Made by a program: the position numbers and the translations under genes. From Gemmatimonadales bacterium (GTDB lineage Bacteria > Gemmatimonadota > Gemmatimonadetes > Gemmatimonadales > JACORV01), in the NCBI GenBank assembly GCA_036493755.1, contig DASXPG010000106.1:11241-75240 (forward strand): a DNA stretch of 64,000 nucleotides, given 5' to 3'. The notes below the pieces were generated by a model that was not told where the DNA came from, searched no databases, and worked only from the letters and a program-made list of their open reading frames with translations. Positions within the stretch are counted from its first letter, which is position 1; each line of letters opens with the position of its first letter. This document shows, piece after piece, positions 52,562 through 57,322 of this stretch.

Positions 52562-54493
52562 ATGCGCGGCAAGAACGAACGCGGCTACGTCCGGCTCGAA
52601 ACGCCGCTCGTCCGGGAGAAGGGCGTTCTGCGCCCCGCTTCCTGGGAGAGCGCACTCGACCGGGCGGCGGAGGGCTTTGCCCATATCCGCGAGACCCGGG
52701 GCGGCGACGCCATCGGGATCTTCAGCTGCTCGAAGTCGACGAACGAGATGAACTTCCTCGCGGGGAAACTGGCTCGCCAGGCGTTCGGCTCGCATAACGT
52801 CGACAGCTGCAACCGGACCTGACACGCTCCTAGCGTCGTCGGTCTGGCGACAGCGTTTGGCGCGGGCGGGGGCACCACCTCGTACCGCGAGATGGAAGAG
52901 ACGGATGTGATTTTCCTCTGGGGCGCGAACCCCAGGGAGAATCATCCGATCATCTACCATCACATCCTGAAGGGGATTCACCACGGCGCGAAACTCTACG
53001 CGGTGGATCCTCGGCGGACGCCTTCGGCCCAGTGGGCCGATGTGTGGATGGGTCTCAACGTCGGCAGCGACATCGCGCTCTCGAATGCGATGGCGCGGGT
53101 CATGATCCATGAAGGCCTGGTGCACGAACATTTCGTCGCCCACGCGACGACCGGTTTTGACGCGTATCGGACGTCGGTGGAACCCTGGACCCTCGACAAG
53201 GCCGAGCAGGTCACGGGCGTCCCGGCCGACGTGATCCGTGAAGCGGCGATCACGTATGCGAAGGCGAAGAAGGCGATCATCTGCTGGACCCTCGGAATCA
53301 CGGAGCACCACAACGCCGTCGACAATGTTCTGGCACTCATCAACCTCTCCCTCCTCACCGGCCACGTCGGACACTATGGCTCGGGGCTCAGCCCGCTGCG
53401 CGGACAGAACAACGTCCAGGGCGGCGGCGACATGGGCGCGATTCCCAACAAGCTCGTCGGCTTCCAGGACCCGCTCGATCCCGCCATCAAATCGCGCTTC
53501 GAGAAGGCGTGGGGCGTGCAACTTCCGAACAAGCTCGGCTGGACGATCACCGACATGTTCCACGCCATGGAGCGCGGCGACATGACCGGACTCTTCGTGA
53601 TCGGCGAAAATCCGGCGCAGTCGGAAGCGGACCAGCACCACACCCAGGCGATGCTCGAAGGCCTGGAGCACATGGTGGTACAGGACATTTTCCTGACCCG
53701 GACCGCGCAACTCGCCCACGTCGTTCTCCCTTCGACGGCGAGCTGGTGCGAGAGCGACGGCACGGTGACCAACAGCGAGCGCCGGGTCCAGCGGGTGCGC
53801 GCCGCGCTCCAGCCACCGGGCGACGCGCGCGACGAGCTGTGGATTCTGTCGGAAATGGCGAAGCGCCTCGGCATCGACTGGGGCAAACCCACGGCCGAGA
53901 GCGTCTGGAACGAAGTGCGCACCATGGCGCCGGAAATGTTCGGCGGGATGAGCTATCCGCGCCTCGAGAAACTCGGCGGCATCCAGTGGCCCTGCCCGGA
54001 CGAATCGCATCCCGGCTCGCTGCTGCTCCACGACCGGCTCTGGGCCGAGCCGCGGGGCGGCCCGCCGGCACCGTTCAGCGTCGTGGTCTACGAGCCGCCG
54101 GTCGAGATGCCCGACGCCGAGTATCCCTTCCAGCTCACCACCGGGCGCCGCCTCGATTCGTACAACACCGGGGTGCAGACGGCGGGCTACGCCTCGCCAC
54201 TTCGGCGCGCGGAAACGGTCGACATGTCGCCCGAAGATGTCGATCGACTCGGCCTCGAGGAGGGCGACAGCGTGGAGATCGCGTCCCGGCGCGGCTGCGT
54301 CGTCGCCCCGGTGCACGTGGAACCCAATCTCAGGCCCGGCCTCGTCTTCATGACGCTGCACAACCAGGACGACGTGCGCGTCAACCTGCTCACCATCGAC
54401 GTCACCGATCCCAAGTCGGGCACCGCGGAGTTCAAGGCCTGCGCCGTGCGCATCGAGCCGGTGCGCAAGCCCGCCGCGGCCGCCGGCGACTGA
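52562..54493 (+). CDS. fdhA: Formate dehydrogenase catalytic (molybdopterin) subunit lacking the N-terminal Fe-S domains; in-frame UGA (52820-52822) read as selenocysteine
   Basis: ORFs 52562-52822 and 52892-54493 share one frame, interrupted only by TGA. Across it the translation is NVDSCNRT-U-HAPSVVGLATAFGAGGGTTS, the FdhF active-site motif (VDCCARV-U-HGPSVAGL). The downstream molybdopterin and dinucleotide-binding domains are intact. Confidence 0.85.
52823..52855 (+). promoter_or_regulatory. SECIS-like recoding hairpin
   Basis: gtcgtc (52835-52840) pairs with ggcgac (52846-52851) around the loop GGTCT. The GGTCTG starts 18 nt after the UGA, the same spacing as in E. coli fdhF (UGA-N18-GGUCUG). 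Confidence 0.6.
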
Positions 54494-54506
54494 AGCAAGG
54501 GAGCTC

Positions 54507-56381: not shown

Positions 56382-57322
56382 GCGAAGGACCGCGCAACGA
56401 GCGCGTCGAAATCAGCGTGGACGGCGAGAACGTCACGGTACCGAAGGGCGGCACCATTCTCGACGCCTGCCGGCAGCTGGGGCGCGAGATCCCGACCCTC
56501 TGCTACCTCGAGACGCTGCACCCGGTCAACGCCTGCCGGGTTTGCGTCGTCGAGCTGGAAGGCTCGCGGGTGCTGGTCCCCTCCTGCTCGCGCATCGCGA
56601 CACCCGGCATGAAGGTGAAAACCGACTCGCCGCGGGTGAAGCTCAGCCGCAAGATGGTGCTGGAATTCCTGGATTCGTCGGTTGACCTGTCCACCGCGCC
56701 TAACGTCGAGGGCTGGCTGGCCGAGTACGGTTGCGACAGCGAGCGCTACGGCCCCGAAGCCCAGCCGGCCACGGCCGGCGAGCGTGACGAGGCGCCGGCC
56801 GGCCACCATCACAAGCCGGATCCCGCCGTCGCCGCGACCGTGCACCAGCCGGTCAAGGTCGACAACGACCTCTACGTGCGCGACTACTCCAAGTGCATTC
56901 TCTGCTACAAGTGCGTCGAGGCCTGCGGGACCGACTACCAGAACACCTTCGCCATCGCCGTCGCGGGTCGCGGATTCGACGCGCGAATCTCGACCGAAAT
57001 GGCCGTCCCCCTCCCCGATTCGGCGTGCGTCTACTGCGGCAACTGCATCGCCGTCTGTCCCACCGGCGCGCTGATGTTCAAGACCGAGCACGATCGTCGC
57101 GCCGAGGAGACCTGGGACGAAGCGAAGCAGCACGTCACCGACACCATCTGCCCCTACTGCGGCGTGGGCTGCACGCTCCAGCTCCGGGTGCAGGAAAACC
57201 AGGTCGTCCGGGTCACCTCGCCGCTCGACCACTCCATCACCCGTGGAAACCTCTGCATCAAGGGACGATTCGGCTGGCGCTTCGTCGAGAATCGGAGCCG
57301 GCAGCGCGATGTCGACGACTGA
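56378..57322 (+). CDS. NuoG-like Fe-S subunit: 2Fe-2S, two 4Fe-4S ferredoxin motifs, and the Fe4S4 cap normally fused to the molybdopterin domain
   Basis: TLCYLE...NACRVCVVE...PSC (2Fe-2S), CILCYKCVEAC and CVYCGNCIAVCP (ferredoxin-type). It ends ICPYCGVGCTLQLRV...GNLCIKGRFGWRFV, then stops. ATGA overlap with the NuoEF gene. Confidence 0.85.
   Translation: MSEGPRNERVEISVDGENVTVPKGGTILDACRQLGREIPTLCYLETLHPVNACRVCVVELEGSRVLVPSCSRIATPGMKVKTDSPRVKLSRKMVLEFLDSSVDLSTAPNVEGWLAEYGCDSERYGPEAQPATAGERDEAPAGHHHKPDPAVAATVHQPVKVDNDLYVRDYSKCILCYKCVEACGTDYQNTFAIAVAGRGFDARISTEMAVPLPDSACVYCGNCIAVCPTGALMFKTEHDRRAEETWDEAKQHVTDTICPYCGVGCTLQLRVQENQVVRVTSPLDHSITRGNLCIKGRFGWRFVENRSRQRDVDD

Follow-up and report, generated by a model that had tools for sequence, protein, structure and literature searches.

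A split alpha subunit in a putative selenocysteine-dependent, NAD-linked formate dehydrogenase operon of uncultured bacteria

The 64,000-nt stretch of DNA analysed here, referred to as the window, corresponds to positions 11,241-75,240 of contig DASXPG010000106.1 from the Gemmatimonadales bacterium assembly GCA_036493755.1, and all coordinates are given in window numbering. Five close-packed genes on the + strand, from 52562 to 58768, encode the catalytic half of a formate dehydrogenase (FDH) alpha subunit, a NuoE-NuoF fusion, the iron-sulfur (Fe-S) half of an FDH alpha subunit, FdhD and a beta-carbonic anhydrase. The catalytic half (52562-54493, + strand; 643 residues plus selenocysteine) consists only of the domains that bind molybdenum (Mo) or tungsten (W) with the bis(pyranopterin guanine dinucleotide) (bisPGD) cofactor: Molybdopterin (PF00384) was found by Pfam at residues 11-435, covering the full profile from 1 to 353 (228 bits), and Molydop_binding (PF01568) at residues 523-628 (94.9 bits). 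Neither an Fe4S4 domain nor an N-terminal CxxCxxxC was found in this protein by the Pfam search. Because the reading frame is shut upstream by an in-frame TAA at 52535-52537, and a ribosome-binding site, GAGGGAG (52550-52556, + strand), is located 5 nt ahead of the ATG, the catalytic half cannot bear an N-terminal Fe4S4 cap. It carries the hallmarks of FDHs, namely U87-H88 at the active site and the Arg in SPLRGQNNVQG; this active-site His and Arg are strictly conserved in the FDHs characterised so far (PMC8808070).

The NuoE-NuoF fusion (54507-56381, + strand; 624 aa) comprises the Pfam domains 2Fe-2S_thioredx (PF01257), Complex1_51K (PF01512), SLBB (PF10531) and NADH_4Fe-4S (PF10589), with a [2Fe-2S] motif of the form C-x4-C...C-x3-C, an FMN/NAD(H) domain and a [4Fe-4S] site, and it is matched by the nuoF_fam and NuoE models of NCBIfam. 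The Fe-S half (56378-57322, + strand; 314 aa) gave Pfam hits to Fer2_4, Fer4_Nqo3, 4Fe-4S dicluster domains and Molybdop_Fe4S4. The last of these (PF04879), the cap, is complete, residues 252-305 corresponding to profile positions 2-55 of 55, and the protein stops 9 residues on. The next gene encodes the sulfurtransferase/chaperone FdhD (57309-58166, + strand; PF02634, 231.9 bits; TIGR00129, 198 bits against a cut-off of 140.9), and the last one a beta-class carbonic anhydrase (58163-58768, + strand; PF00484, 127 bits). The NuoE-NuoF gene starts with GTG 13 nt past the stop of the catalytic gene, behind a ribosome-binding site, AAGGGAG, at 54497-54503; the start of the Fe-S half overlaps the stop of the fusion (ATGA), fdhD overlaps the 3' end of the Fe-S half gene by 14 nt, and the start of the carbonic anhydrase gene overlaps the fdhD stop (ATGA). 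This spacing suggests that the genes constitute one translationally coupled operon.

When the two halves were aligned to FdsA of Rhodobacter capsulatus (6TG9 chain A), residues 9-308 of the Fe-S half matched FdsA 24-308, and residues 11-636 of the catalytic half matched FdsA 308-936. The same division was seen with the Fdh-alpha model TIGR01591 (672 positions), of which positions 1-53 fall on the Fe-S half (53.6 bits) and positions 53-672 on the catalytic half (652.7 bits); the curated cut-off of 666.25 bits is failed by each half alone and passed by their sum, 706 bits. On the Fe-S half no NCBIfam model reaches its own cut-off, and NCBIfam is without a model for the split architecture. The two halves are complementary, with exact tiling, at the boundary of the Fe4S4 cap and the Mo domain. 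A sequence-only reading of this DNA had proposed a split at this boundary and the gene order catalytic half, NuoE-NuoF fusion, Fe-S half, fdhD; both proposals were borne out, the breakpoint being right within a few residues and the four features lying where they had been placed. It had also supposed that the catalytic product has no Fe4S4 motif of its own, which agrees with the searches described above, and that the Fe-S product is something other than an unrelated ferredoxin, which is the case because the latter carries a complete cap, including the conserved C-x-K-G-R-F. It has been reported that metal-dependent FDHs all keep the bis(molybdopterin guanine dinucleotide) (bis-MGD) cofactor and the proximal [4Fe-4S] cluster within one subunit (PMC7171172). 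In the window, the cap is on the 56378-57322 product and not on the polypeptide with the bisPGD domain.

The same arrangement is widespread. A scan of one genome per species yielded at least 80 loci in metagenome-assembled genomes (MAGs), at 64-76% identity, and tblastn with the four window proteins recovered the order catalytic half, NuoE-NuoF fusion, Fe-S half, on one strand, in all of the 80 loci that had enough flank. The single alpha polypeptide of NAD-linked FDHs is replaced in every one of these by two genes flanking the NuoE-NuoF gene. In most loci, -1 to ~24 nt separate the catalytic and NuoE-NuoF genes. The proteins are 60-77% identical between phyla and retain every cofactor ligand. 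Among the 120 sequences closest to the Fe-S half, at 73-100% identity, lengths run from 289 to 391 aa and a Molybdopterin domain is absent throughout (0/120); in the longer ones only disordered Gly/Asn/Asp-rich tails follow the cap, compared with 9 residues in the window protein. In the databases, these proteins have generic names such as "2Fe-2S iron-sulfur cluster-binding protein" and "YjgC". Only fdhD varies in position, being downstream on either strand, upstream, or absent within 8 kb, and it is present within 8 kb in ~44 of the 80 loci. In two of 76 loci the NuoE-NuoF fusion and the Fe-S half form a single open reading frame (ORF), which therefore ties the cap-bearing protein to the diaphorase module; these NuoE-NuoF-NuoG(N-terminal)-cap proteins are encoded at ~5913-8910 of L009, a Gemmatimonadaceae MAG, and at ~3265-6169 of L080, an Eisenbacteria MAG.

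According to the record titles, the 80 MAG loci are distributed over Gemmatimonadota (24 MAGs), Acidobacteriota (17), Chloroflexota (15), Actinomycetota (9), Planctomycetota (6) and Proteobacteria (3), with one MAG each from Myxococcota, Rokubacteria, WPS-2, Vulcanimicrobiota, Eisenbacteria and one labelled Patescibacteria. The split Sec-type layout (Sec, selenocysteine) is thus shared by uncultured bacteria from some dozen named lineages and is a real enzyme variant. The locus labelled 'Patescibacteria group' (L066, DASRAN010000011.1) has the full operon, which is unexpected for such reduced genomes and may reflect a binning error. In eight Chloroflexota loci (L010, L013, L015, L016, L020, L031, L046 and L079), 0.6-3.5 kb are inserted between the catalytic and NuoE-NuoF genes; the two inserts examined, those of L010 and L046, encode a GYD-domain protein and an SRPBCC (Polyketide_cyc2) protein, and that of L046 also a sigma-70 family factor. 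Clustering of the ORFs in the flanks of the 80 loci found no conserved gene beyond fdhD, an analysis confounded by overlapping spurious ORFs in GC-rich DNA. Many Fe-S-half homologs, such as P0028, P0041, P0043, P0055, P0056, P0099 and others, have apparently disordered C-terminal tails rich in Gly, Asn, Asp and Arg that extend 30-70 aa past the cap.

The ORF of the catalytic gene is interrupted by an in-frame TGA at 52820-52822 (+ strand), which is read as Sec (SCNRT-U-HAPSV) at the position of the metal-ligand Sec or Cys of FDHs, ahead of the conserved His. In all 69 related loci where an active-site motif could be located, this codon is TGA (69/69). Further downstream is a hairpin resembling a selenocysteine insertion sequence (SECIS) at 52833-52854 (+ strand), with the stem GCGUCGUC / GGCGAC(A)GC and the apical loop GGUCU, of which GGU is the 7th codon past the UGA; this is presumably the register of the Escherichia coli fdhF SECIS as well. 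Across 60 distinct sequences 96% of the cells are paired, compared with only 14-77% in slid controls, and compensatory changes of the pairs run from C-G to G-C in 3 sequences, from U-G to C-G in 16 and from U-G to U-A in 7. The Rfam scan returned tRNAs only, with no bacterial SECIS family at gathering score. Whole-segment folding of 52814-52880 was unremarkable (z-score -0.3), and the hairpin was therefore judged by alignment. An in-frame UGA at the Sec position followed by a hairpin with a GGUC-type apical loop is found here as in bacterial selenoprotein genes. Furthermore, two of the loci, L016 and L077, have a tRNA-SeC gene no more than ~2 kb away from the catalytic gene. The Sec codon with its hairpin, the loss of a His-ligated cluster described below and the large conserved family all go beyond what the sequence-only reading had noticed.

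Database gene calls are cut at this TGA into pieces of ~86 aa and ~533 aa. The closest catalytic-half homologs are almost all 525-555 aa long and start past the TGA, with no Cys variant among them, and the closest 120 homologs of the first 86 residues are all mini-ORFs of 80-93 aa that end at the TGA, none with a cap. A single homolog in the protein database, P0225 (ENA, a 2183-bp single contig), spans the whole catalytic half; it has Arg at the Sec site (CNRT-R-HAPS), which probably results from a change of TGA to CGA or AGA or from a sequencing error, and its product is probably inactive.

The window comes from a MAG and a stop codon lies inside the catalytic gene, so that the split, permuted layout might be put down to faulty assembly or binning, or the gene might be taken for a decaying pseudogene. 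We reject this explanation, which is almost certainly wrong. The same layout is present in 80 independent loci from many studies, four of them on records titled single chromosomes (OY969695.1, OZ253463.1, OZ253507.1 and OZ244775.1), and misassembly is excluded by its conservation across 80 independent assemblies. In addition, the stop is TGA in every case, occupies the Sec position throughout and has a conserved hairpin behind it each time.

The Fe-S half holds the ligand Cys of four clusters: C42/53/56/70 for a [2Fe-2S] cluster, C173/176/179/183 and C217/220/223/227 for two [4Fe-4S] clusters, and C258/261/265/293 for the cap. The 16 cluster Cys (16/16) and the Lys of the cap motif LCIKGRF are invariant across the closest 120 homologs. 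The motifs for the [2Fe-2S] and ferredoxin-type [4Fe-4S] clusters of NuoG/HoxU-like proteins (A2, A3 and A5) are therefore present, on a separate polypeptide. The ligands of the His-ligated [4Fe-4S] cluster A4 of RcFdsA (H117, C121, C124 and C130; His-x3-Cys-x2-Cys-x5-Cys) are replaced in the alignment by an unrelated segment, and no conserved His/Cys motif was found at the A4 region in the closest 120 homologs. In R. capsulatus FDH (RcFDH) the main path is A1-A2-A3-A5-B6-FMN, and A4 stands outside the path from bis-MGD to FMN, at the dimer interface (PMC7171172). Because A4 is off this path, its loss would leave the main electron wire intact. The replacing segment, residues ~95-160, is without cluster ligands; residues conserved in the closest 120 homologs include the H143-H144 pair (97%), C31 (96%) and C119 (74%).

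With this domain content, tiling, set of ligands, Sec codon and gene order, the operon very probably encodes a soluble, Sec-dependent, Mo- or W-containing, NAD-linked FDH related to NuoEFG, in which three polypeptides would assemble and the proximal [4Fe-4S] cluster would be provided in trans. By homology with RcFDH, the catalytic half, which has no Fe-S cluster of its own, would bind bisPGD and oxidise formate at the Sec-ligated metal, and the electrons would pass via the pterin to the proximal [4Fe-4S] in the cap, at the C-terminus of the HoxU/NuoG-like Fe-S half, a separate polypeptide. From there they would travel through the two ferredoxin-type [4Fe-4S] clusters and then the [2Fe-2S], all within the Fe-S half, and finally reach the [4Fe-4S] and FMN of the NuoE-NuoF fusion, where NAD(P)+ would be reduced. 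FdhD would be responsible for sulfuration of the cofactor, and the proteins would be expressed from translationally coupled genes (a 13-nt gap, then two overlaps) with the Sec-containing gene first. Because the alpha subunit is split at the boundary of the cap and the Mo domain, the electron path must cross between separate polypeptides, and this conclusion of the sequence-only reading is upheld as a consequence of the split.

Several points weigh against this assignment. The enzyme is predicted here from gene sequences, and docking of the cap against the catalytic half is likewise predicted, by homology. Either NAD+ or NADP+ could be the acceptor and either Mo or W the metal, and the enzyme could physiologically run in either direction. 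The genes selA, selB, selD and tRNA-Sec were not found within the 64-kb window and could lie elsewhere in the genome. The hosts are all uncultured MAGs, and the aerobic lifestyle that is assumed for them would fit poorly with a Sec-type FDH.

It might be argued that the NuoE-NuoF fusion and the Fe-S half form an independent NADH-linked diaphorase in which the cap is a remnant, and that the catalytic half uses another partner or stands alone. Some bisPGD enzymes, such as the dimethyl sulfoxide (DMSO) and trimethylamine N-oxide (TMAO) reductases, operate without any Fe-S cluster, and chains resembling these reductases are among the weak structure matches of the catalytic half. There is also a parallel in complex I of Thermus thermophilus, in which the equivalent NuoG cluster, N7, is disconnected and is seen as a remnant (PMC7171172). 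We nevertheless consider an independent diaphorase very improbable. The three genes are constantly found together, in the same order and mostly with very short gaps, and the invariance of the four cap Cys and of the Lys of C-x-K-G-R-F in the closest 120 homologs would be unexpected for a remnant. Furthermore, the two halves together restore the full TIGR01591 profile, and the cap and the catalytic half rank solved relatives alike, with FdhF of the hydrogen-dependent CO2 reductase (HDCR) near the top for both.

The high rank of HDCR FdhF, which is the closest relative of the catalytic half, could on the other hand be read as pointing away from a simple formate:NAD+ oxidoreductase, towards a physiological CO2 reductase or a bifurcating or ferredoxin-coupled complex of the Bfu/HylABC-FdhF2 kind. 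Among the best solved matches of the NuoE-NuoF fusion are HydB from bifurcating hydrogenases and related chains of the Bfu family, and the N-terminal Fe-S part best matches a bifurcating HydA1. However, bifurcating HydB subunits have extra C-terminal ferredoxin-type [4Fe-4S] domains, and the fusion in the window ends ~10 residues past PF10589, with no Fer4 domains in the Pfam search. No ferredoxin or hydrogenase genes are conserved across the 80 loci, and the upstream neighbours in the window, which appear to be C1-releasing catabolic genes, would fit formate oxidation. A bifurcating or CO2-reducing complex is thus very unlikely.

The origin of the split can be approached through more distant relatives. 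Cys-type or cap-bearing close relatives were looked for and none were found. Among fused alpha subunits of the NuoG type, even the nearest share only 35-40% identity with the Fe-S half and 28-39% with the catalytic half, and a search of a representative library returned mostly fragments, with fused relatives appearing from ~40% identity. Several of these fused entries end in ...NNIDHCARL, that is, they are cut at their own Sec codon, which shows that fused Sec-type relatives exist. The similar ranking of relatives by the cap and by the catalytic half is consistent with the two having formerly been joined. As a hypothesis, the present order could have arisen by cyclic permutation, from [Fe-S + catalytic][E-F] to [catalytic][E-F][Fe-S], through tandem duplication followed by loss of the ends, and the high identity across phyla suggests horizontal spread. 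On one Limnocylindrales contig (L079), a canonical cluster of fdhD, fused alpha and NuoE-NuoF genes is located at 9508-15377 (- strand) beside the split operon; its proteins are 33-43% identical to those of the window, and in its alpha subunit the Fe-S part directly precedes the catalytic part.

The sequence-only reading had given the catalytic gene its own promoter and ribosome-binding site. The latter is present, as described above; the promoter comes down to a single weak match to the consensus, the sigma-70-like candidate TTGACC-17-TATGTT at 52495-52523 (+ strand), which is the only such site in 52300-58500, where 0.6 are expected by chance from shuffles. Upstream of it, between 47121 and 52415 on the + strand, are genes for a GcvT-like aminomethyltransferase, two FAD-dependent amine-oxidase-like oxidoreductases and the alpha subunit of a Rieske-type oxygenase. 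We infer that these genes may serve in demethylation or C1 release and could in that way supply the FDH with formate; in 6 other loci, too, the operon has GcvT-like genes nearby. The palindrome GCGTCCT-NN-AGGACGC occurs at 47088-47103, 18 nt upstream of the GcvT-like start, and again at 52452-52467, between the Rieske gene and the promoter-like site of the FDH operon, with an imperfect copy at 52423-52438. The 11-mer CCTTCAGGACG is found 3 times, compared with 0.03 expected, and the palindrome may be a shared operator by which the upstream cluster and the FDH operon are co-regulated. In other loci, CCTTCAGGACG was rejected as a regulatory site: there it is part of the catalytic gene, always the same distance from the TGA, and is read as HHVLKG codons, and its conservation is that of coding sequence. 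Carbonic anhydrase was likewise rejected as a part of the system, as it had no tblastn match in the 80 related loci, though its gene is apparently co-transcribed with the operon in the window. Four tRNA genes (Glu-TTC, Glu-CTC, Trp-CCA and His-GTG) are clustered at 43696-44008 on the - strand.

The chemistry of this enzyme is expected, and the novelty lies in its architecture, as an unnamed variant of a well-known enzyme. More tentatively, and with the reservation that we find it rather doubtful that all of its parts hold together, the operon may represent an unrecognised, widespread class of Sec-dependent, NAD-linked FDH that combines placement of the proximal cluster (FS0) on the diaphorase module, a cyclically permuted gene order, gating by Sec and under-counting in surveys. 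If so, the class would span uncultured bacteria of many lineages, mostly from soil-type surveys; the proximal [4Fe-4S] would have moved to the diaphorase module, leaving the bisPGD subunit as a cluster-free, plug-in catalytic cartridge; and, with the Sec gene first, successful decoding of the UGA would gate translation of the coupled diaphorase genes. With its catalytic gene cut at the TGA by gene callers and its Fe-S half named generically, the enzyme would also be under-counted in surveys of formate and CO2 metabolism in soil. Database annotation breaks it up into three or four unrelated-looking pieces: a "NuoF", a "2Fe-2S cluster-binding protein", a short ORF (~86 aa) and a fragment of an FDH (~533 aa). 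The formate metabolism of these MAGs of Gemmatimonadota, Acidobacteriota, Chloroflexota, Actinomycetota and Planctomycetota would by implication depend on selenium. The split is a clear and conserved exception to the one-subunit rule (PMC7171172), in that the interface between cofactor and cluster would be built between two polypeptides. It also bears on the maturation of Mo enzymes, because Fe-S insertion and cofactor and Sec insertion would take place on different chains, and it suggests that FDHs or CO2 reductases could be engineered from exchangeable catalytic and electron-transfer modules.

The split architecture was not described in the full-text literature searched, including a recent large review of FDHs, and each of the known systems shares only some of its features. 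FdsABG(D) of R. capsulatus and Cupriavidus necator (PDB 6TG9/6TGA) is made up of the cofactor modules that the window operon also encodes: a NuoG/HoxU-like Fe-S domain, the Fe4S4 cap, the bisPGD domain, a NuoF-like FMN subunit and a NuoE-like [2Fe-2S] module. It likewise has an FdhD-type sulfurtransferase (FdsC). However, FdsA is one chain, whereas in the window the alpha subunit is divided between two polypeptides, with the diaphorase gene lying between their genes; the metal ligand of FdsA is Cys386 instead of Sec, and the His-ligated A4 cluster is present. In addition, NuoE and NuoF are fused in the window operon, and the fdsGBACD order is not followed. No FdsD candidate emerged from the ORF clustering of the loci, in which no direct search for FdsD was made. 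The tungsten FDH1 of Methylorubrum extorquens (PDB 7VW6, 7E5Z) is similar to the window enzyme in being an NAD-linked, two-module enzyme with NuoE-like and NuoF-like parts in one chain, Fdh1B, and the catalytic half matches residues 372-985 of Fdh1A with 460 bits. Unlike the catalytic half, Fdh1A is a single chain of ~990 aa with its own cap and with Cys, not Sec. The NuoE-NuoF fusion of the window scores 294 bits against Fdh1B and 340-370 bits against NuoF/HydB proteins, and since it is no closer to Fdh1B than to these, NuoE and NuoF may have been joined independently in the two systems.

Of the solved structures, those nearest to the catalytic half are of the FdhF type, with Thermoanaerobacter kivui HDCR FdhF (7QV7; 7qv7_S) as its best PDB match at 527 bits and E. 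coli FdhH (1AA6) at 461 bits. For the cap by itself the nearest structures are again these two, with 46 and 38 bits, respectively. FdhH, moreover, is a selenoprotein (PMC8808070). In the FdhF-type enzymes, however, the cap and the Mo domain are on one chain, residue 11 of the window protein aligning to chain residue 61-63, and there is neither a NuoG-like extension nor a NuoEF partner. A precedent for dividing an FDH-like bisPGD unit at a domain boundary is formylmethanofuran dehydrogenase (PDB 5T5I), which is split at the opposite end, with the Molydop_binding domain as FwdD and the Fe4S4 cap retained by FwdB; FwdB was a weak match of the catalytic half. HoxU is not known to have a Molybdop_Fe4S4 cap, and the NCBIfam HoxU model scores 132 bits on the Fe-S half, below its cut-off of 333. 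The HoxFU diaphorase of NAD-reducing [NiFe] hydrogenases, whose catalytic partner is a hydrogenase, nevertheless combines HoxF and HoxU by the same module logic as the NuoE-NuoF fusion and the Fe-S half, and a resemblance to HoxU has been noted for the first 250 residues of FdsA (PMC7171172).

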